Counted from the first letter of the stretch, positions 16,464-42,655 are shown. The stretch: 64,000 nt of DNA from Candidatus Omnitrophota bacterium (GCA_044225175.1 JBGAJA010000001.1:134994-198993), one strand, 5' to 3'. Numbers and translations: made by a program. The notes: generated from the sequence alone by a model not told the origin.

Positions 16464-16494
16464 TCCGTATTACCACGTAGTTTCTTACGTATTT
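16464..16494 (+). promoter_or_regulatory. Direct-repeat array GTATT-N5-GTAGT-N7-GTATT (10 and 12 bp centre spacing), about 29 nt upstream of a TACAAT -10-like box; candidate activator site (copy A)
   Basis: Same array and spacing recur at 20548-20574 and 22190-22226. The adjacent conserved block GAATTTATTT and the downstream AATTAAAGCATGTT are also shared. Confidence 0.4.
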
Positions 16495-16536
16495 CATCGA
16501 ATTTATTTCCTTCCTAGCTCCAGCTACAATTAAAGC

Positions 16537-16947
16537 ATGTTTAAACCATGCATCTTACTGATTGAAGACCACAAAGAATACCGGGAAGCTGTATTACATT
16601 TTCTCGAGTTAAGTAATATCAAGGCGCATTTTTTAGAAGCTTCTTCAGGGGAAGAGGGTGTGCTTTTAGCCAAAACAAAGAAGCCTAGCATTGTAATCAT
16701 AGATTTCTCTTTGGGAGGGATTGATGGATTGGAGGTATCCCGCCAAATTAAAAAATATCTGCCTCAATGCAGCATTATCATGCTCAGCATGTACGACCCC
16801 AAGGAAATTCTTCGAAGAAATGGACACGGAAATGTCAGCTCTTTTGTCAATAAAAGCGATCTATATGAACAGCTTGTACCTGCTATTAACAAGATTCTGA
16901 TTGATTCTAAAAAGAATAGAAAATATTTATTGAGTAAGAAAGGGTAG
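16537..16947 (+). CDS. single-domain response regulator (CheY-like receiver only)
   Basis: ILLIEDH...IVIIDFSLGGIDGL receiver motifs with the phospho-acceptor Asp. No output domain. Confidence 0.75.
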   Translation: MFKPCILLIEDHKEYREAVLHFLELSNIKAHFLEASSGEEGVLLAKTKKPSIVIIDFSLGGIDGLEVSRQIKKYLPQCSIIMLSMYDPKEILRRNGHGNVSSFVNKSDLYEQLVPAINKILIDSKKNRKYLLSKKG

Positions 16948-19172: not shown

Positions 19173-20551
19173 AAATACTTATGATGACCAATACTTATGC
19201 GCCTATGGTTGGAGGAATAGAAGAATCCATTCGTTCCTTTACACATGAGTTTGAAAAGTTGGGCCATGAAGTTCTTATTGTTGCTCCTGAATCTGAGGGG
19301 GCGCCCCCTGATGAGGTGGGTGTGATACGTTTACGTGCCATTAAAAACTTTAATCATTCGCATTTTTCTATTGCCTTGCCCATGTCTGGTCTTTTGCCGG
19401 AACTCATGAAAACTTTTATGCCGGATATCATCCATTGTCATCATCCTTTTTGGATGGGAGATATTGCCTTACGTTTAAGCAGTCAATACCATATCCCACT
19501 GGTCTTTACTTATCATACGATGTTCGAGCAACATATGCATTATCTGCCCATTCAGAATGAAGGGGTAAAACGCTTCATCATTGATTTATTTGCCGGTTAC
19601 GCGAATTTGGTGACCCAAGTGATTGTTCCGAGTGAAAGTGTTCGCGACATTCTTTTGGCACGTGAGGTTAAGACACCTATAGAAGTAGCGCCAACGGGCG
19701 TAGATTTACAAAGATTTTCAAAAGGAAATGGAAATATTATTCGTCAACGTTTGGGTATTCCTTTAGATGCTGTCGTCATTGGTTATGTCGGTCGACTGGC
19801 TACAGAGAAAAATTTAGAGTTTTTAAGCCGCAGCATTGCAGAATATTTAAAGAAAGAAACCAAAGTGCATTTCTTGGTAGGTGGGGACGGTCCCCTTAAG
19901 GATACAGTCAAGAAGATCTTCAATGATCAAAGGGTTGAAAAACGGCTGCACTTGGCCGGTATGCTTAAAGACCAAGATTTGGTTGACGCTTATCATGCGA
20001 TGAATATTTTTGCTTTTGCCTCTTTAAGTGAGACACAGGGGATTGTTTTGGTTGAAGCGATGGCCGCTGGAGTTCCGGTAGTAGCCATTGATGCTCCAGG
20101 TGTTAGGGAAGTTGTTAAAGACGGCTACAACGGAAGATTAATTTTCGGAGAAAATCAAAACAATTTCTTAGAAGCCCTTACGTGGTGTCTCAAGCAGCCC
20201 GTTAGTGAATTTGATCAGATGAAGAAGAATGCCCAAGCAACGACAAAAGAATTCGCCGTTGATCTTTGCGCTAATCGGATGTTGAAGATTTATGAAGATG
20301 TCAGGGTTAAAGAATATACTTGGTCTGATCACAAAAATAGAGCCTGGGACTCTCTGACGGATCGTCTTAAAAGTGAATGGGATATGTTTAAAAATATGAT
20401 GCATGCCGGCAGTGCAGCTATGGACACGGCAGGTTCAGAAAAACCGATAGAAAAAAGAGCTAAGGGCTTGTTCCTTATTCTTCCTCGACTATTATCTTTA
20501 AGAGAGTGGTCTGCAAGACTTTTGCATCGCAGATATCCGTCCTCTAAGTAG
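19169..20551 (+). CDS. GT4-family glycosyltransferase
   Basis: N-terminal GT4-like domain. C-terminal E..AMAAGVPVVA nucleotide-sugar binding motif of GT-B retaining transferases. Start overlaps the upstream stop. Confidence 0.75.
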   Translation: MKILMMTNTYAPMVGGIEESIRSFTHEFEKLGHEVLIVAPESEGAPPDEVGVIRLRAIKNFNHSHFSIALPMSGLLPELMKTFMPDIIHCHHPFWMGDIALRLSSQYHIPLVFTYHTMFEQHMHYLPIQNEGVKRFIIDLFAGYANLVTQVIVPSESVRDILLAREVKTPIEVAPTGVDLQRFSKGNGNIIRQRLGIPLDAVVIGYVGRLATEKNLEFLSRSIAEYLKKETKVHFLVGGDGPLKDTVKKIFNDQRVEKRLHLAGMLKDQDLVDAYHAMNIFAFASLSETQGIVLVEAMAAGVPVVAIDAPGVREVVKDGYNGRLIFGENQNNFLEALTWCLKQPVSEFDQMKKNAQATTKEFAVDLCANRMLKIYEDVRVKEYTWSDHKNRAWDSLTDRLKSEWDMFKNMMHAGSAAMDTAGSEKPIEKRAKGLFLILPRLLSLREWSARLLHRRYPSSK

Positions 20552-20574
20552 TTCCACGTAGTTCCTCCCGTATT
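20548..20574 (+). promoter_or_regulatory. Direct-repeat array GTAGT-N5-GTAGT-N7-GTATT, candidate activator site (copy B), upstream of CBS-ldhA
   Basis: Same box sequence and 10/12 bp spacing as copies A and C. Followed by GGATTTATTT and a TAAACT -10-like box at similar distance. Confidence 0.4.
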
Positions 20575-20714
20575 TCTGCGGATTTATTTATCGAATAACC
20601 AGTGATAAACTTAATTTATAACGTTCAAAGAAAGGGGATGGTAGCGAACATGCAGTACATCATCCACAACAATAAAGAAATTGTCTTATATTAAGACCAA
20701 AAGGAAGGATTTTT

Positions 20715-22189: not shown

Positions 22190-22226
22190 GTAGTACTAGG
22201 TAGTACTACGTAGTTATTTCCGTATT
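22190..22226 (+). promoter_or_regulatory. Direct-repeat array GTAGT x3 (10 bp spacing) plus GTATT (12 bp), candidate activator site (copy C), upstream of the tandem winged-helix/response-regulator operon
   Basis: Followed about 29 nt later by a TTATAAT -10 box and the conserved AATTAAAGCATGTT leader. Confidence 0.4.
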
Positions 22227-22288
22227 TTAGCGAATCACTCCTCGTCATATCCTCAGTTATAATTAAAGCATGTTAATCAACCACCTAT

Positions 22289-26165: not shown

Positions 26166-26496
26166 ATCTTAAAGAATGCTATCTGGTCCAAGATTCAATA
26201 TTAAAATTTCTTTATAATTGCTTTAAACTTCATGATTTGCTTCACTTATTCCCAAAGAATCAATTGAAAAAATCCATATACAAAAAGATAATCTATTGGA
26301 ATTTATCGTCGATAAACCACAGATTTTTCCTTTAACCTGTTTGACTCTATTTTAACCACTTTTGCGTAAAAGTGGACACTTTTTGGACACCAAATGGTTT
26401 CTAAATTTCATATTAGATATCTAGAACCTTGTTGCTCTTTTATTTTTATTTGATAGTATAAATTTGGGTCTGGAGAATTTTTCCAGAGGGTGTTTT

Positions 26497-26543
26497 GATG
26501 GTCGGGCCGCCATCTGATTGAAAAATCAGATGGCTTTTTTTTT
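26497..26543 (+). promoter_or_regulatory. Conserved leader element, copy 1. GATGG-N8-CCATC competes with an 11 bp hairpin GCCATCTGATT/AATCAGATGGC followed by a 9-T run; candidate attenuator immediately upstream of the nhaD-like start
   Basis: Shares the GATGGTCGGGCCGCCATCTGRTTGAAAAAYCAG core with copy 2 at 29428. The stem differs by a compensatory change (A-T to G-C). The U-tract abuts the RBS. Confidence 0.4.
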
Positions 26544-29387: not shown

Positions 29388-29427
29388 TTTAATAAAGGGT
29401 CCATAAGGTTTGCCTTATGGAGGATTA

Positions 29428-29474
29428 GATGGTCGGGCCGCCATCTGGTTGAAAAACCAGGGGGTGGCCTTTTT
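29428..29474 (+). promoter_or_regulatory. Conserved leader element, copy 2 (GATGG...CCATC, hairpin CCATCTGGTT/AACCAGGGGGTGG, then TTTTT), 22 nt upstream of the otsA start
   Basis: See copy 1. Hairpin plus U-tract sits between the tetR stop and the otsA RBS, leaving no room for an independent promoter. Confidence 0.4.
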
Positions 29475-35519: not shown

Positions 35520-35774
35520 GTGCTCTCTAACCAAAACGAAAGTAACACAAAATTGCTCCAATTAAAGCTATTGCCTATTAAATTAAGAATTATTGTAACA
35601 ATTTTTTATATAACCTTCTTGGGGCAAGGATGTTGCATTATTGAACGTAATAAGCAAAAGGATTTAACTAAGCTTAGCCTAGAGGATCTAATGAATATTG
35701 AAGTCAGTTCAACCCAAGAACTAAAATTGAATAATCGTCCTCTGAAGCTTCCATTAATCTATCCAAGAATTTAA
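35520..35774 (+). pseudogene. N-terminal remnant of a TonB-dependent receptor gene
   Basis: LSLEDLMNIEVSS matches the conserved TBDR N-terminal motif, but the ORF stops after 84 aa in a 450 bp AT-rich gap. Confidence 0.35.
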
Positions 35775-35931: not shown

Positions 35932-36153
35932 TTAATCGTTTAATAAATCGCCAGGTTTGATTTTGAGGGCTTTGGCGATCACATCTAGGTTTTGGACGCC
36001 TATATTCTTCTCACCACGTTCAATTTGACCAATATAAGCACGATGTAAATCAGCTTCATGGGCTATTAGTTCTTTCTTGAGATATCTATGAAATCCTTCT
36101 TTACAGCCCATAATAATTCCGGTATAAAATCCTCTCTTTACCGTTCTTTTCAA
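35932..36153 (-). CDS. XRE-family helix-turn-helix regulator (73 aa)
   Basis: HTH_XRE core ...IGQIERGEKNIGVQNLDVIAKALKIKPGDLL. TTG start at 36153. First about 23 codons lie inside the 177 bp repeat. Confidence 0.6.
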   Translation of the reverse strand: MKRTVKRGFYTGIIMGCKEGFHRYLKKELIAHEADLHRAYIGQIERGEKNIGVQNLDVIAKALKIKPGDLLND

Positions 36154-36260
36154 GTTATAATTTTTGCTTCAGCCAAAGGCTGATCCGCCTTGGGCGGAGG
36201 CTTTACAGTTAAATAAATTTACGCTGGCTTAGCTCAGTTGGTAGAGCAGCTGATTTGTAA
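36084..36260 (+). repeat. 177 bp direct repeat, copy 1 (tRNA-Thr upstream region plus tRNA positions 1-38); attL-like
   Basis: About 98% identical to 42008-42184 (2 substitutions, 1 indel). Identity stops exactly in the anticodon loop. Confidence 0.8.
36223..36260 (+). other. 5-prime fragment of tRNA-Thr (positions 1-38, acceptor/D-arm/anticodon stem-loop only)
   Basis: Identical to the first 38 nt of the intact tRNA-Thr(UGU) at 42147. Followed by unrelated sequence. Confidence 0.8.
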
Positions 36261-36483
36261 ACCCTAACAGCAAAATCTTCTAACCCGCTCCAATTCTTGT
36301 AATTACGTCTACTACCAATAAGTTGCGACAAAATCCAAAACACACCAATTGCTACAATTTAGTTTATTTTGCCTTTCCGTTTAGCACGTTTTAAGCACAA
36401 AGTGAGGTGAGTAAGCGTTTTCTCATATTGCCATTCCAGCCCTTGTTTTTACTTATCTATAGTCTAAACTTTATAGTAAGACT

Positions 36484-39400
36484 ATGAGATACCCCATATC
36501 ATCTAAATATTGGCAAAAGGCCATTAGTTTATTCGTCATTGTTACGTTTATTTTGACTGGTTTTAATATTCCTTTGGCTCAAGCTCAAGAATTTCATTTA
36601 CCAAAGCCTGGGGTAATGGTTCATTTAAGTCCTGAATTTAATCCGCCGATTTTAAAAGGTATTAAAGTCCATGCCGATAATCCTTTCAGATTTGAATTCA
36701 TTTTGGACAAAGGGGATAGCAATAAAAATAACGATCAGCTAAAAGAGGAATCTTCTAAGCTGATTAAATATTTTTTAGCTTCTTTAACCATCCCTGAGAA
36801 AGACCTTTGGGTCAATTTAAGCCCTTATGAAAAAGATCGTATTATTCCTAATAGTTTTGGTTTAACCGAAATGGGTCGTGATTTGTTGGCGCAAGATTAT
36901 ATGCTCAAACAGATAACAGCTTCTTTGATCTACCCTGAAGATGAAATAGGAAAGAAATTTTGGAAACGCATATACGAAGAATCTTCTAAGAAATATGGAA
37001 CAACTAATATTCCAGTGAACACATTTAATAAGGTTTGGATTGTTCCTGAGAAAGCTGTTGTGTATGAGAACGCTAAGGCGGGGACAGCATATGTGGTGGA
37101 ATCTAGGCTCAAGGTTATGTTAGAGCAAGATTACCTTTCATTACAAAAGCATGAAGGCGAAACACAATCTCAGGTCAAGGAAACTAATCAATTAGGTAGT
37201 CAAGTTATCCGTGAGATTGTTATTCCTGAACTTACCAAAGAGGTTAATGAAAATAAAAATTTTACCCAGCTTCGCCAAGTCTACAATTCTTTAATTCTTG
37301 CAACGTGGTATAAGAAGAAAATAAAAGACAGTATTCTGTCTCAAGTGTATGCCGATAAAAATAAGGTAATGGGAGTAAACATTGATAATCATAAAGAGAA
37401 AGAAAAGATTTATCAGCAATACTTACAAGCTTTCAAGAAGGGTGTCTATAGCTACATTAAAGAGGAGCAAGACCATTTAACTGGGCAACCTATTCCAAGG
37501 AAATATTTTTCAGGAGGAGCAACATTTTTTGGATTAGCGGATAAGGCAATGGTAATCATGCCAGTAGGTGGAAATGTTGTTATTGATAATGCCCCTAATT
37601 CCATGTTAACTGTTTCAACTGCTCTCAATGTTATTGGAGCGGCTGAAGAAAGTAGACCATTTAAAACTCAAATACCTCAGAATCCAGAAATGGATGGTAT
37701 GTTCGAAAGAGGAAGAAGTTTAATACAAGAAAGTTTAAACCAGGAATTAGTGTATCTAAGACTTTTCCGAGGGAATAAAGTGTTAGCTATGAATGACATT
37801 GAAATTCCTTCCGCCTTAAAAGGAATGATCGGAGAAACAGGGAAGGTTGTTCAAATTTATGATAGCGATCTTCTTGCTTCTATGCGTAGAGAAGCTCCAG
37901 ATGTCATGGAAGAAGAAACAGCAAAATCGTTTTTGGTTACTTTTAACCAAAATGGAGATGTTTTTAAAATCTATTTAATCGCGCCACATAATATGGCATA
38001 TGCTTTAGATGAATTAGAGACTGAGAATCAATTAGCCAAACAAATTAAAGTTATGGTAGTAAAAATATTAAGTACTCAAGCACAGGCTAACAAGATACAA
38101 ACAAGTTTAGACCAGGTAAAGAATCAGGACTTACACACAAGGTATGGAAATATTCTTATTCCTTTTGGAGTTGAACTGAATTTAGTCCAAAGTATATTGA
38201 AACATCCTATAGCAAGGAATTTATTGTCTGGACTCCAGGGGAGGGTTTCTTTACTGAGCGCTGGTCAGGTTATTTACGTATCAGGTTCTCAGGTTGGTTA
38301 TGATGACTATGAGGAATCTTTGTTTCAAGAAAGTCAGATTGATGAGGAATTAATTGCTCATCTTACACAAATGGTAGTTATGGATCAGAAAGAAAAGCCC
38401 TTCGACTACCGATCACCGAAAGAAAAAAGAAATCATTGGCTAAGAGGACTAGCTGATTCAAATAAATTGATTACAGGAGCATTGCAAGGGCAAAGAATAA
38501 ATGGAGTATTTTATAATCCTAAACTTTATGACCAAGGAGAACAAGGTGTTTTAGGGACAATCGTTCACGAAATAGTTCATCTTTATTTGAAAGAGGCGCT
38601 AGCGCAAGTAAGGCCAATATTATTGAGAATAAAGGCGCGCCATGGAGATTTTATTGAATCTTTAAGTAATCCCAATGGTTTATTTTTTAATCTTCAATTA
38701 TCTGATGAAGATCAAAAAGATTTACGAGAGGTGGGCATTTTACCTAGAGTTGTGGGGGATGAGGCAATGGTGGCAGCTTCCGAATTTTATAGTAGAACAT
38801 TGCAGCCGACAATTGGGACCACATGGAGTGAATTAGATGAAAGTATTCAAAAAATGATTGGAAGGCATGTCGATGATCCTGATTTAATTGAAATGGTGAA
38901 AGCATCGAACAATGAAGCTAAGAACTCATTGGCCTGGATTGTACGTGTTGTTACACAAGAAGTGCTTTTTAAGGCTATTTATGAGTCTATGGCAGGAGAT
39001 TTTGATCGTGAACAATTCGAAAAACAATTATTTAAGATAGGGAAACTTCACGGAGAACATGCAGCTACTTTCTTTGCTATCTTAAATGTAATTTCTCCCT
39101 CGAAAAGACCAAAGATAGAAGATATCAGCAAAATAATGATAGAGGAATCTAATCATAATCTAGCCACGGGGCGGCATTATTATGTCGCTTTAAAAACACT
39201 TACTTTTCTTGTTACAAAAGATAATTTTAAAGAGGTCTGGGAGCAAATAGGTGAGCTTTTGGATTCTGTTTTTGAGGAAGGTACAGATTATTTTTTAAAT
39301 GTTACGCTACCGTCATTTAAGGGCTTAATAAAAACCCTGGCCGATTTAAAGAAGTTTTATACAATTTTTAGAAAAGCCATTGATGAAGATGAACTCGAGG

Positions 39401-40554
39401 ATATAGATACTTCAGAATTTCTGTTGGCATTAAATGTCGTCAAGGATGTCGTAAAAACTCTACAAGATTTAAGGGGAGTTGCAAAGATTGTTGTCGAATT
39501 GGAAAACTCTTTACCTTATTATACAAATTCTGCCTATATCCTTTTAACAGCATTAAAGCATATAATTAAAACAAAAGATGATTTAGTTGCGGTGCATAAA
39601 GCTCTCTTAAGAATTAAGAAAAAACATGAAGAAGAATTTGAGAATTTATGTCGGTATGGGTTTCCGAGTATAGGTAGTTCAATTCAAAAAGTTGAGGATT
39701 TAGAGACAGCTGCCGACCAACTTGTTTTACTTTTAGATTCGGCAAAAATGGGAAGTAAAGAGACTGTAGAACATTTAGTGAGTATTATGGAATCTAGTCA
39801 GAAAATAGAGGGAGATCAACAGCACGGTTCAGCATTCATTGTTGCAGGGTTATGGCAAATTTTTTTAGCAGATGCAAAATTTTTTCAAGAAAAATCTACG
39901 GATGAAAGAACTATCTGGGTTAGAGAAGTATTAAGAAAGTTTGGAAAATATACCGTTAAGCAATTGATGGAAGCTAAAATAGAAAAATCCTCTTCCGGTG
40001 ATAAACTTTACGTAAATGAGTATCTAAGTATGATGATGATAGATGAAATTAAGCCTTTATTTGATAGATTGACTGCTGTTCCTCTTGAGGAAGCTCAGTT
40101 AATGTTAAATGAAGCTTTACCTGATGATGAGCAATACGGTAAGTTTTTGTTGGCAATGGTTCCTTATGTTTTATTCTTCAAAGATAGAAAAATGAGAGAT
40201 ATTTTGATTTCTAAAAGGACCAGAAAAGTTATTGCTAGTTTGGGAGAAAAAGAGGCGGAGGTCAGTTATCTACCAAAGCTTTTGGTAGGGGGAGAAATGC
40301 CCGAGATAGATCTGGCGATGCTCAATATACCGATTCAAGTTAAAAGTACATCCGATAAAAATTTTACCAAAGGTGGTATTGACTTAACCCCCGTCAATAT
40401 GAATTTACAAACCAAAAATAGCGGGAACGAATTCAAATTTCATATTGACCCTGCTATGCTGAAACAACTCCAAAATGCCCCAGGTTTTTATCCTGTCATT
40501 ATTAATATTCAGCCAATGACGGATTTACAAATGTTCCTTGGCTTAAAAAATTAG
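36484..40554 (+). CDS. 1356 aa secreted protein with HExxH motif (candidate zinc-metallopeptidase-like effector/toxin), cargo of the tRNA islet
   Basis: Signal peptide (…NIPLAQA-QE). Single HEIVH motif near residue 700 with Glu/His candidates downstream. No other family recognised. Confidence 0.55.
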   Translation: MRYPISSKYWQKAISLFVIVTFILTGFNIPLAQAQEFHLPKPGVMVHLSPEFNPPILKGIKVHADNPFRFEFILDKGDSNKNNDQLKEESSKLIKYFLASLTIPEKDLWVNLSPYEKDRIIPNSFGLTEMGRDLLAQDYMLKQITASLIYPEDEIGKKFWKRIYEESSKKYGTTNIPVNTFNKVWIVPEKAVVYENAKAGTAYVVESRLKVMLEQDYLSLQKHEGETQSQVKETNQLGSQVIREIVIPELTKEVNENKNFTQLRQVYNSLILATWYKKKIKDSILSQVYADKNKVMGVNIDNHKEKEKIYQQYLQAFKKGVYSYIKEEQDHLTGQPIPRKYFSGGATFFGLADKAMVIMPVGGNVVIDNAPNSMLTVSTALNVIGAAEESRPFKTQIPQNPEMDGMFERGRSLIQESLNQELVYLRLFRGNKVLAMNDIEIPSALKGMIGETGKVVQIYDSDLLASMRREAPDVMEEETAKSFLVTFNQNGDVFKIYLIAPHNMAYALDELETENQLAKQIKVMVVKILSTQAQANKIQTSLDQVKNQDLHTRYGNILIPFGVELNLVQSILKHPIARNLLSGLQGRVSLLSAGQVIYVSGSQVGYDDYEESLFQESQIDEELIAHLTQMVVMDQKEKPFDYRSPKEKRNHWLRGLADSNKLITGALQGQRINGVFYNPKLYDQGEQGVLGTIVHEIVHLYLKEALAQVRPILLRIKARHGDFIESLSNPNGLFFNLQLSDEDQKDLREVGILPRVVGDEAMVAASEFYSRTLQPTIGTTWSELDESIQKMIGRHVDDPDLIEMVKASNNEAKNSLAWIVRVVTQEVLFKAIYESMAGDFDREQFEKQLFKIGKLHGEHAATFFAILNVISPSKRPKIEDISKIMIEESNHNLATGRHYYVALKTLTFLVTKDNFKEVWEQIGELLDSVFEEGTDYFLNVTLPSFKGLIKTLADLKKFYTIFRKAIDEDELEDIDTSEFLLALNVVKDVVKTLQDLRGVAKIVVELENSLPYYTNSAYILLTALKHIIKTKDDLVAVHKALLRIKKKHEEEFENLCRYGFPSIGSSIQKVEDLETAADQLVLLLDSAKMGSKETVEHLVSIMESSQKIEGDQQHGSAFIVAGLWQIFLADAKFFQEKSTDERTIWVREVLRKFGKYTVKQLMEAKIEKSSSGDKLYVNEYLSMMMIDEIKPLFDRLTAVPLEEAQLMLNEALPDDEQYGKFLLAMVPYVLFFKDRKMRDILISKRTRKVIASLGEKEAEVSYLPKLLVGGEMPEIDLAMLNIPIQVKSTSDKNFTKGGIDLTPVNMNLQTKNSGNEFKFHIDPAMLKQLQNAPGFYPVIINIQPMTDLQMFLGLKN

Positions 40555-40609
40555 GAAAATGCTCTAGTAAGAATTTAAATTAAGCTTTTTGCTTTAAATC
40601 CTTTGTAAT

Positions 40610-42000
40610 ACCAAAATAGAATTGTCCGGATTGACCAAAATAAGAATGTCCGCTTTTAGAATGTTCATAATGCAATCAAGGAGGCATTATGGACAACGGG
40701 AAGGACATTTTTATGATGAGTCGCAAGGAGATCAAAAGATATCGTGATTCGAAAAGTCATTGATAAGCAGATCAAGCAAAAGGAAGCGGCAGAATATTTA
40801 AAATTGGATAGCAGGCAAGTGCGGCGAATCATAAGACGCATTGAGCGTGAAGGAGAAGCTGGGGTCATTCATAAGCTTAGAGGTAAAGAAGGCAACCGTA
40901 AGATAGGATTAAGCTTTAGGAAGAAGGTTTTAGATTTATACAGGAAGAGTTATTGGGATTTTGGACCTGTGTTAGCGTCGGAGAAGTTGTTGGAGCGGGA
41001 TGGAATTACGGTCTGTGATGAGACGTTGCGATTATGGTTGATTAAAGAAGGTCTTTGGCAATTAAGCAAGAGAGCAAAGCCTAAAGATAGGACAAGGCGA
41101 GAACGCCGTGAACATTTTGGGCAGATGGTGCAGATGGATGGCAGTCATCATGATTGGTTGGAAGGCCGAGGGCCTAAATTGGTATTAATGGGATATATTG
41201 ATGATGCTAATAGTCGATTTCATGGTGAATTTCATGATTATGAAGGTACGATGCCTGCGATGGCAGGATTGAAGGGCTATATTCAGCGTTATGGGCTGCC
41301 GGCAAGCATTTATTTAGATAAACACTCGACGTACAAAAACAATCGTAAGAATACTTTTATAGATTGGCCATTTAGAGATGAAGAAGAATTGACTCAGTTT
41401 GGCAGAGCCTGTCACGAGCTTGGTATAGAGCTTATATTTGCCCATAGTCCGCAGGCTAAGGGACGTGTTGAGCGGGTCTTTGAGACTCTACAAGATAGAT
41501 TAGTTAAAGAATTACGTTTAGAACAGATCAATAGCCTTGAAGATGCCAACCGACTACTTAAAACGTATTTACCTGTTTTTAATAAGAAGTTTGAGGTATT
41601 GGCCCGTGGCAGTGGGGATTTTCACAGGTCGGTTCCTAAAAAGACTAACCTCGAGGATATATTATCTGTGCAGACAGGACATGTGTTACGTAATGACCGA
41701 ACATTGGTGCACAATAATCAATGGTATCAGGTGTTAGACAAAACCAGGGCTCAGCGGGTTGTGGTGCATGAATATCTTGATGGACAGATAGGTATCTTGC
41801 ATGGTAAAAACAGGCTTAATTTTAAGCCAATAGATAGACCAGCAGCCAAAGTATATCAACCAGTTAAGCGTAGATTTCCTAAATTTAGAAGCAGAAGACC
41901 AGTGGCCTTGACCAATGGTTTTCGCTTATTTAAGTTGCCAGGCAGTTATACAAAAAGCGGACATTTCTAATTTGGTAGAAAGCGGACATTTCTATTTTGG
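40610..42000 (+). mobile_element. Insertion sequence (about 1.39 kb) with about 48 bp imperfect terminal inverted repeats, each containing two copies of CCAAAATAGAA(A/T)TGTCCG
   Basis: Left end CCAAAATAGAATTGTCCG...CCAAAATAAGAATGTCCGCTTTT matches the reverse complement of the right end. Single DDE transposase gene inside. Ends plus or minus 2 nt. Confidence 0.6.
40744..41970 (+). CDS. DDE transposase (rve integrase-core, IS481/ISNCY-like); N-terminus apparently frameshifted
   Basis: HTH N-terminus then DDE core (VQMDGSHHDW, GYIDDANSR). Upstream ATG-ATG encodes MMSRKEIKRY, the typical family N-terminus, in another frame ending after 16 codons. Track ORF restarts at GTG. Confidence 0.7.
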   Translation: MIRKVIDKQIKQKEAAEYLKLDSRQVRRIIRRIEREGEAGVIHKLRGKEGNRKIGLSFRKKVLDLYRKSYWDFGPVLASEKLLERDGITVCDETLRLWLIKEGLWQLSKRAKPKDRTRRERREHFGQMVQMDGSHHDWLEGRGPKLVLMGYIDDANSRFHGEFHDYEGTMPAMAGLKGYIQRYGLPASIYLDKHSTYKNNRKNTFIDWPFRDEEELTQFGRACHELGIELIFAHSPQAKGRVERVFETLQDRLVKELRLEQINSLEDANRLLKTYLPVFNKKFEVLARGSGDFHRSVPKKTNLEDILSVQTGHVLRNDRTLVHNNQWYQVLDKTRAQRVVVHEYLDGQIGILHGKNRLNFKPIDRPAAKVYQPVKRRFPKFRSRRPVALTNGFRLFKLPGSYTKSGHF

Positions 42001-42007
42001 CGGGACA

Positions 42008-42184
42008 ATCTATGAAATCCTTCTTTACAGTCCATAATAATTCTGGTATAAAATCCTCTCTTTACCGTTCTTTTCAAGTTATAATTTTTGCTTCAGCCAA
42101 AGGCTGATCCGCCTTTGGCGGAGGCTTTACAGTTAAATAAATTTACGCTGGCTTAGCTCAGTTGGTAGAGCAGCTGATTTGTAA
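42008..42184 (+). repeat. 177 bp direct repeat, copy 2 (includes the 5-prime 38 nt of the intact tRNA-Thr); attR-like
   Basis: See copy 1. Begins 7 nt after the IS right end. Confidence 0.8.
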
Positions 42185-42219
42185 TCAGCAGGTCGGGGGT
42201 TCGAAGCCTCTAGCCAGCT
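42147..42219 (+). tRNA. tRNA-Thr (anticodon UGU)
   Basis: Cloverleaf: 7 bp acceptor GCTGGCT/AGCCAGC, D-arm GCTC-AGTTGGTA-GAGC, anticodon stem GCTGA/TCAGC with loop TTTGTAA, T-arm GGGGG-TTCGAAG-CCTCT. No encoded CCA. Confidence 0.85.
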
Positions 42220-42289
42220 TTATTTTTGAGATTTGAAATTAGAGATTGGATTATCCAATTTCGAATTTCTAATATCAAATTTCTATAAT

Positions 42290-42370
42290 GGGCAGTTACC
42301 CAAGTGGTCAACGGGGGCAGATTGTAAATCTGCTGCACACGCTTCGGAGGTTCGAATCCTTCACTGCCCA
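42290..42370 (+). tRNA. tRNA-Tyr (anticodon GUA), class II with long variable arm
   Basis: Acceptor GGGCAGT/ACTGCCC, anticodon stem-loop GCAGA-TTGTAAA-TCTGC, T-loop TTCGAAT. Closely resembles E. coli tRNA-Tyr. Confidence 0.85.
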
Positions 42371-42438
42371 TTCTACTTCGCCCTTAAATTTTCATGTAAG
42401 GGCTTCGTAGAATGAGTTCTTTATAGTTAGCGAGTTAT

Positions 42439-42512
42439 GCGGGAGTAGTTCAGTGGTAGAACTCTAGCCTTCCAAGCTAGTAGCGAGGGTTCGATTCTCT
42501 CCTCCCGCTCCA
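42439..42512 (+). tRNA. tRNA-Gly (anticodon UCC), CCA encoded
   Basis: Acceptor GCGGGAG/CTCCCGC, anticodon stem-loop CTAGC-CTTCCAA-GCTAG, T-loop TTCGATT, 3-prime TCCA. Confidence 0.85.
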
Positions 42513-42655
42513 TTCTACTTTGTCCTTAAATTTTCATGTAAGGGCTTCGTAGGAATGGTTCCTGCGAAGCTCAATTTGTAAACATTGAGCGAAGCAGAAC
42601 AAATTATTAATAAATACCTATCACAAGAATCTAATCTCAATATAATATCCCAAAT

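Follow-up and report, generated by a model that had tools for sequence, protein, structure and literature searches.

An integrase-less insert at a tRNA-Thr gene of an Omnitrophota bacterium: probable remnant of a tyrosine-integrase genomic island

Genes and features of the locus

Omnitrophota is a phylum known almost only from metagenomes. A 64-kb stretch of DNA from Candidatus Omnitrophota bacterium (GCA_044225175.1 JBGAJA010000001.1:134994-198993; this whole stretch is called the window in the following, and positions are counted from its first letter) contains a 5.9-kb insert upstream of an intact tRNA-Thr(UGU) gene, which is bounded by a long direct repeat and carries the gene for a giant secreted protein together with an insertion sequence (IS) of the ISNCY family. 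The insert is probably the decayed remnant of a genomic island that had entered tRNA-Thr(UGU) by means of a tyrosine integrase and has since lost the integrase, in resemblance to the cis-mobilizable elements (CIMEs).

A repeat search of the window identified a direct repeat of 177 nt with copies at 36084-36260 and 42008-42184, both on the + strand and identical at 174 of 177 positions (98%), and no second long repeat of comparable kind. The three mismatches (36107 C/T, 36120 C/T and 36192 G/T) are all located upstream of the tRNA portion with which the repeat ends. In the left copy, on the attL side, this portion comprises nucleotides 1-38 of tRNA-Thr (36223-36260), which are identical in 38 of 38 positions to, and have the same + orientation as, the intact tRNA-Thr(UGU) gene at 42147-42219, the presumed integration target, into which the right copy on the attR side runs. 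The fragment is the sole tRNA fragment within the window and is placed 5.9 kb upstream of the intact gene, that is, on the correct side for a 5′ fragment. Intact tRNA-Tyr(GUA) (42289-42371, +) and tRNA-Gly(UCC) (42439-42512, +) follow; all three genes were recognized by ARAGORN and Rfam. The identity of the repeat copies stops past the anticodon loop TTTGTAA, at the 3′ edge of the loop after nucleotide 38, as it does in L173, an independent contig discussed below, and from this end of identity we infer the position of strand exchange within the loop. Beyond the left copy, the island-side arm beside the crossover together with the upstream region of the cargo gene (36261-36483, +) starts with ACCCT, where L173 has TCCCT at the same position. 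The sequence GCTGATTTGTAA is kept at both att-type junctions, and neither the element nor the window contains a recombinase gene. An excised circle, if formed, would join 42184 to 36261 (IS-repeat-ACCCTAAC).

Independent assemblies support this anatomy. Logan assemblies of two runs (SRR28480385 and SRR28480388) are 100% identical to the window, with contigs that break within the repeat copies and at the IS, as is expected for real repeats exceeding the assembly k-mer. One of the contigs (L002, window 36231-40633) continues from the left tRNA half across the junction into the insert; no independent contig was retrieved in which the IS is joined to the right repeat. A preliminary description of the locus, made from the sequence alone, had reported the 177-bp repeat with its tRNA half, and both are borne out by the repeat search, by ARAGORN and Rfam and by the contig across the left junction. 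Its interpretation of the repeat as a plain attL/attR identity block does not hold, as 139 nt of decayed integrase and hairpin sequence are equally duplicated. In fact, each copy consists of the 3′ vestige of an integrase gene, a double hairpin, a 24-nt spacer and the tRNA-Thr half, with the vestige clear at 36084-36129 and decayed up to approximately 36168 and the hairpin at 36169-36198 in the left copy and at 42093-42122 in the right copy. The repeat is thus not a simple att block, because integration into a naive site would duplicate the tRNA half only. It is the end of the IS, and not the recombination, that defines where the repeat has its outer edge.

The cargo gene (36484-40554, +) encodes a protein of 1356 amino acids with a signal peptide, a conserved N-terminal module of 330 residues, a unique centre and a conserved C-terminal module of approximately 60 residues; together with one IS it confirms the cargo as previously described, a giant secreted protein, an IS and little else. 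The N-terminal 330 residues recur with 70-83% identity in more than 4,800 proteins that differ elsewhere, with the last approximately 60 residues conserved too, and are thereby more conserved than the neighbouring DUF6798 orthologues (62-73%). The centres of the family members are unrelated to each other and comprise kinases, methyltransferases, phosphoesterases and others (P0002-P0120), and the gene family is patchily distributed. No full-length relative was found for the centre of the window protein, and the protein had no sequence match in Pfam, NCBIfam or the PDB. Equally, an AlphaFold (AF2) model of the N-terminal module was of low confidence (predicted local distance difference test score 62), and a Foldseek search with it against the PDB gave no hit at E<=0.001. 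Papers on the giant proteins of Omnitrophota do not describe a locus type like the tRNA-Thr insert. Another family member is situated between corA and an SDF transporter gene in a relative (L088, 9710-12322), at which place the window has only an open reading frame (ORF) of 104 amino acids.

The ISNCY-family element with its terminal inverted repeats extends over 1404 bp (40604-42007, +), so that the right repeat starts at the first base past the IS (42008). Its termini, TGTAATACC...GGCGGGACA, were taken from the related copies in L172-L175 (TGTAATACC...GGYGGGACA; transposases 76-78% identical); the IS reported in the preliminary description is thus present, with its coordinates corrected by these copies. 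The element carries doubled 22-nt subterminal repeats, and its end motif occurs only at 40611-40656 and 41954-42000, which indicates a single copy; the two IS copies around cargo that define a composite transposon are not found within the window. The transposase belongs to NCBIfam NF033594 (392.5 bits against a cut-off of 250) and its gene, starting with ATG at 40689 or GTG at 40744 and extending to 41970, differs from its homologues by a -2 frameshift at codon 19; an exact-protein look-up of the transposase gave no match. A simple insertion in L172 is flanked by a 15-bp target duplication, AAGACGTAAATCATT. The window copy is without such a 15-bp duplication and its flanks, TTGCTTTAAATCCTT and ATCTATGAAATCCTT, have only the 3′ motif AAATCCTT in common, as would be expected of a hybrid of two insertion sites formed by IS-by-IS recombination or by adjacent deletion. 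The 15-bp duplication of this element ends with (T/G)AAATC(A/C)TT (window element at 40604-42007; L172, L173 and L175), and judged by these sites the element appears strongly site-specific. An identical transposase (P0243) was observed in two contexts in samples from three sources, so that the IS is active in another lineage, the window copy being frameshifted.

On the opposite side of the insert, the left repeat abuts a 5′-truncated helix-turn-helix gene (35932-36083, -), a homologue of the controller (C) proteins of restriction-modification systems, which had been described as a divergent XRE gene with a duplicated start. Pfam HTH_3 matches residues 25-70 of this ORF with profile positions 10-55 of 55, and the alignments with the PDB entries C.AhdI, C.BclI and C.Esp1396I begin no earlier than query residue 23-25, with the approximately 22-25 residues that these proteins have before the start of the alignment unmatched by the ORF. 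Residue 23/24 corresponds to base 36084; as homology ceases there, the controller gene is 5′-truncated exactly at the repeat edge, and 36083|36084 is therefore a rearrangement junction. The 23 codons within the repeat are not homologous to XRE-type proteins; as read from the sequence they are the antisense of the presumed integrase vestige, by which alone the frame would stay open to 36153. An exact-protein look-up of the ORF gave no match.

An integrase vestige in the repeat

The identification of the vestige is based on L173, an independent 4.2-kb contig of the Joint Genome Institute (JGI), the arrangement of which recurs in the Logan contig L174. In L173, the 3′ end of a further member of the giant gene family is followed by a related IS, then by the C-terminus of a tyrosine integrase and finally by the 38-nt tRNA-Thr half. 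The catalytic C-terminal region of the integrase, KKSFFTACIKSGIKSFRFHDLRHTFASQ...LRYSHLSP, matches PF00589 (E=7e-16, profile 112-171 of 172); the remnant as a whole has also been delimited as FRFHDLRHTFAS...LRYSHLSP. It gaplessly abuts a tRNA-Thr half identical to the 38 nt of the window, which is followed by non-tRNA DNA, TCCCTTCC..., and not by a tRNA 3′ half. The integrase gene thus reads into the same 38-nt half, in line with the earlier proposal that the edge in the anticodon loop is the att signature of an integrase.

The first 46 nt of the repeat match the integrase remnant of L173 in 37 of 46 positions (80%), without gaps and at an equal offset from the end of the IS, a level reached by none of 400,000 random pairs of 46-mers. 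Read on the + strand, the repeat gives MKSFFT(A/V)HNNSGIKS compared with KKSFFTACIKSGIKS in L173. In both the window and L173, the integrase is interrupted by a related ISNCY element, and the codon is the same. Flank and IS have diverged alike between the two (80% and 76% identical, respectively), so that the IS-integrase junction may be ancestral; an independent insertion at the same integrase codon is also allowed by the strong target preference of the element. It was considered as well whether giant gene, IS and vestige descend as one block from an ancestor common to the window and L173; for the body of the gene this was rejected, as only the family-wide C-terminal 69 residues of the cargo align.

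A tblastn search with 75 related integrases against the window gave no hit at E<=0.01 and there was no integrase ORF; equally, no integrase Pfam family is present among the pre-annotated genes approximately 12 kb on either side. The absence of a recombinase gene from the window and from these flanking genes bears out the view of a degraded element, and the statement that no integrase is present holds for the gene as such, while each repeat copy opens with an integrase 3′ vestige.

The locus in related genomes

Neighbouring proteins assign the window to Omnitrophota. The block of tRNA-Thr, tRNA-Tyr, tRNA-Gly, GT2, DUF6798 and GpsA is preserved in related Omnitrophota genomes with orthologues that are 62-66% identical. 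The anticodon stem-loop of the tRNA-Thr of these relatives is identical to that of the window, the DNA upstream of tRNA-Thr is unrelated and differs from relative to relative, and no 5′ fragment is present there. In L085 and L086, the tRNA cluster occurs without the upstream fragment, the integrase vestige and the insert. The comparison with insert-less relatives that the preliminary description had advised thus yielded the uninterrupted cluster, in genomes too distant to rebuild a true empty site. A scan of genome contigs with the GH15 neighbour retrieved nothing nearer than approximately 60% identity and no synteny.

Origin of the insert

What the sequences show is the arrangement of the parts, the homology of the vestige to an integrase, the two ends of the IS and the truncated genes; from these we infer the following order of events. 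An island would have entered tRNA-Thr(UGU) from the upstream side by a crossover in the anticodon loop, with an integrase gene at its right end that read into a tRNA 5′ half borne by the island. By integration, the 5′ half of the chromosomal gene would have come to lie at the far left end, and the tRNA would have been rebuilt from the 5′ half of the island and the chromosomal 3′ half. Subsequently, the site-specific ISNCY element, with its 15-bp target duplication ending in AAATCMTT, would have entered the integrase gene, and IS-by-IS recombination or adjacent deletion would have removed everything between the cargo gene and the integrase codon '...SMKSFF'. The leftover stump of the integrase might then have decayed to the 139 nt and gained the 30-nt hairpin element, leaving an integrase-less remnant with both att-type junctions and one gene of a very large family of secreted proteins in Omnitrophota.

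As the decayed stump is present on both sides and is 98% identical, the duplication does not stem from the first integration into a naive site, and a second event is needed. In one history, an earlier copy would have been lost by a break at the right end of the IS that was joined into the controller-protein gene, and a sibling would have re-entered, either with the help of a trans-acting integrase or through RecA-dependent recombination inside the repeat, so that the last step might have been site-specific or homologous. In another history, a tandem duplication of the island would have been followed by the same deletion from the right end of the IS into the controller gene.

Several observations weigh against an origin from an integrase-borne island. 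The left repeat starts exactly at the position of the IS end and no IS is there, the flank beside it does not fit the IS target motif, and the two-step history behind its start is ad hoc. The integrase homology inside the window comprises 46 nt (14 codons), and the translated match of the vestige to L173 taken alone is not significant (E=4.8). The similarity between the island-side arms of the window and L173 is equally not significant, as it is reached by 43 of 500 shuffles, and the cargo genes of the two are alike only in the family-wide C-terminus. Furthermore, an intact integrase of the L173 type adjoining an intact tRNA-Thr was not found in any Omnitrophota genome, which makes the active form of this integrase family a putative one, and the contexts of DUF6798 orthologues gave distant comparators only, the nearest being 62-73% identical, and no true empty site.

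Alternatively, RecA might have sufficed: a circular or sister copy with the giant gene, the IS and the 177 nt would have recombined within the repeat, or sisters would have exchanged unequally, with no integrase in the last step and with the edge in the anticodon loop inherited from an old junction. The 139 nt of non-att sequence (vestige and hairpin) in repeats that are 98% identical, the absence of an integrase gene from the window and the R-Q-R layout which Campbell-type recombination yields are in favour of this course of events, which is possible but rather unlikely. It does not account, however, for how the tRNA half came to be joined to non-tRNA DNA, a junction which L173 ties to an integrase, and is therefore a variant of the last step of the island model rather than an alternative origin.

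Far less probable is that the ISNCY element alone has created the structure by one-ended transposition, transduction of a flank or an overlong target duplication, with no integrase history at all. Indeed, the right repeat directly follows the last base of the IS and the left repeat has its start at the equivalent base, the IS is without target duplication, and TGTAAT in the anticodon loop has the same six bases as the left terminus of the IS. However, the duplication that the element makes is 15 bp in L172, which rules out a target duplication of 177 bp, there is one copy of the IS only, with a frameshifted transposase gene, and none at the left copy of the repeat, and the repeat has its inner edge where, in L173, the tRNA half behind the integrase gene ends.

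Similarly improbable is an assembly artefact, in which an uninterrupted locus of truncated controller gene, repeat and tRNA-Thr and a separate insert, located on a circle or at another locus, had been misthreaded through the 177-nt repeat. The Logan contigs are built from k-mers and without exception break inside the repeat, which short-read graphs are unable to phase, and an integrated copy gives the same contigs as an empty site plus a circle. On the other hand, the source record is a contig of 819,945 bp, in independent contigs the phase of the three repeat variants agrees with the flanks (L003 and L004 carrying the left variants), two separate runs break at the same base, and a circle of 5.9 kb that has no replication gene would probably not be maintained. 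A chromosomal tandem duplication of ancient date, without a mobile element, which had been named as the refuting alternative and would likewise place a unique segment between direct repeats, is hardly credible, as the copies are followed by differing sequence (insert and tRNA 3′ half), so that no unit was duplicated, their 98% identity contradicts an ancient event with divergent repeats, and the insert contains an IS together with a gene whose family is of patchy distribution.

Relation to known tRNA-associated islands

Taken as the remnant of an integrase-borne island, the insert belongs to a known minority class and involves no new mechanism. Of the islands in Islander, 159 have a 5′ tDNA fragment versus 3,760 with a 3′ fragment (159/3,919), and anticodon-centred sites, tandem arrays and integrase ORFs that extend over attP are recorded there as well (PMC4383910). 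As in the 5′-fragment islands, the locus has a full tRNA gene and a cognate, co-oriented fragment displaced upstream, with the end fragment on the correct side, the island in between and the identity ending in the anticodon loop (site A); the integrase is tRNA-proximal and reads into or across att as in Mx8 and SSV, and the size is within 2-200 kb. Unlike in those islands, a tyrosine-integrase gene is neither inside nor overlapping, its place being taken by the 46-nt vestige alone, which is homologous to the PF00589 C-terminus of L173; the integrase is thus reduced to approximately 46-80 nt, and the repeat exceeds the tRNA fragment by containing this vestige. An island of this type was not found described for Omnitrophota, the host in the present case.

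CIMEs and tandem accretion at att sites have been described previously (Pavlovic 2004; Bellanger 2011; reviewed in PMC5704250). The insert resembles CIMEs in that integration genes are lost and attL- and attR-type junctions are kept (PMC5704250), while CIMEs are defined for Firmicutes relatives of integrative and conjugative or mobilizable elements (ICE/IME) that integrate at 3′ ends, and the element discussed here is known from sequence alone. L173, in which the integrase remnant and the end of the tRNA half continue into further non-tRNA DNA, is reminiscent of a tandem array. Equally, the single IS with non-matching flanks that each carry the IS target motif and the truncated genes on both sides correspond to an IS-mediated decay of islands; in contrast to a classical adjacent deletion, in which the IS is retained, the left repeat starts at the position of an IS end and no IS is there.

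A survey of 80 loci on viral contigs that encode related integrases extends the connection between this integrase family and 5′ tRNA halves. A co-oriented tRNA gene is situated at, or overlaps, the integrase stop in L179, L208 and L209, and the integrases of L180 and L195 end in 5′ tRNA fragments, with the tRNA-Met half of L195 stopping right after the anticodon loop. A D-arm motif occurs at 3 of the 80 integrase ends compared with approximately 0.15 expected; the att-type junction (tRNA half followed by NCCCT) is absent from the viral contig collection.

If the insert is such a remnant, the rarer upstream, 5′-fragment mode of tRNA integration is documented in Omnitrophota, together with a specific way in which this phylum gains genes of the very large family of secreted proteins and an example of how a site-specific IS erodes tRNA islands. 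For annotation, the integrase family behind a tRNA islet that has no integrase can still be recognized where a related contig retains the gene.

The double hairpin and a possible hotspot

The 30-nt hairpin element in both repeat copies consists of TCAGCC-AAA-GGCTGA followed by TCCGCC-NNN-GGCGGA. Its 24-mer core, GCTTCAGCCAAAGGCTGATCCGCC, occurs exactly in 82 metagenome contigs (loci L090-L171) with a GC content of 34 to 68% and in none of 2.9 million viral contigs. Rfam has no family for the repeat or the hairpin at gathering or permissive thresholds, and a literature search on the hairpin sequence found no paper. The flanks of the hairpin vary and comprise tRNA D-loops, inverted flanks or direct repeats of 7-8 nt; in 16 of 55 copies with distinct flanks, the hairpin is located in the D-loop of a tRNA gene or a 5′ tRNA fragment. 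A few of the variants of the hairpin stems are compensatory. A closing stem that creates a three-way junction is only weakly enriched (9% versus 2.7% for stems >=6 bp) and was discarded as a defining feature.

Several of the D-loop copies are followed by an ORF of approximately 85 amino acids with a GIY-YIG domain and by an intact copy of the same tRNA. These mini-cassettes thus consist of a 5′ tRNA fragment (approximately nucleotides 1-21) split by the hairpin, the GIY-YIG nuclease ORF and an intact tRNA (L090 11927-12291, L093 1571-1932, L117 7250-7694, L127 95-464 and, on the - strand, L153), the 5′ end of which matches the fragment in L090, L093, L117 and L127. Variants without the ORF are found in L095, L107, L140 and L169. 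With this arrangement, the mini-cassettes look like homing-type insertions that would supply a replacement for the 5′ part of the tRNA. Although incidental to the insert, these small cassettes of tRNA fragment, GIY-YIG ORF and intact tRNA and the ultra-conserved double hairpin constitute the most original material of the analysis.

A far-reaching combination of these observations, which must be considered improbable, is that in this lineage of Omnitrophota the upstream side of tRNA-Thr represents a hotspot at which an integrase in trans repeatedly exchanges small elements and that, at the same time, the hairpin is an undescribed mobile or structured element. The exchanged elements would then be integrase-defective and IS-bearing, with one hyper-variable gene for a secreted protein each. 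As the element would provide the promoter and the 5′ half of the three-tRNA operon, expression of the Thr, Tyr and Gly tRNAs of the host would depend on it, and the hairpin would target the 5′ parts of tRNA genes in several uncultivated lineages.

Further features of the window

Downstream of the insert, a hairpin-bearing 52-nt repeat (42368-42419 and 42510-42561, 88% identical) overlaps the final bases of tRNA-Tyr and tRNA-Gly and extends past both genes into the 3′ flanking DNA; it may serve in processing or as a terminator. Upstream, an ORF of 84 amino acids without family match (35520-35774) is situated between the GH15 gene and the truncated controller gene in the lowest-GC stretch of the region (30%) and may belong to the remnant of an older island. 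A repeat of approximately 75 nt, starting with GTAKTWCCACGTAGTT..., occurs three times (16467-16541, 20548-20622 and 22200-22274; 63-73% identical), with two of the three copies just upstream of ORFs on the + strand. Finally, two matches to the nhaA-I (Na+-type) riboswitch above the Rfam gathering score (26466-26515 and 29397-29446) are located directly upstream of a CitMHS transporter gene and a trehalose-6-phosphate synthase gene, the latter heading a trehalose operon of otsA, a mechanosensitive channel, otsB and a GH15 trehalase.

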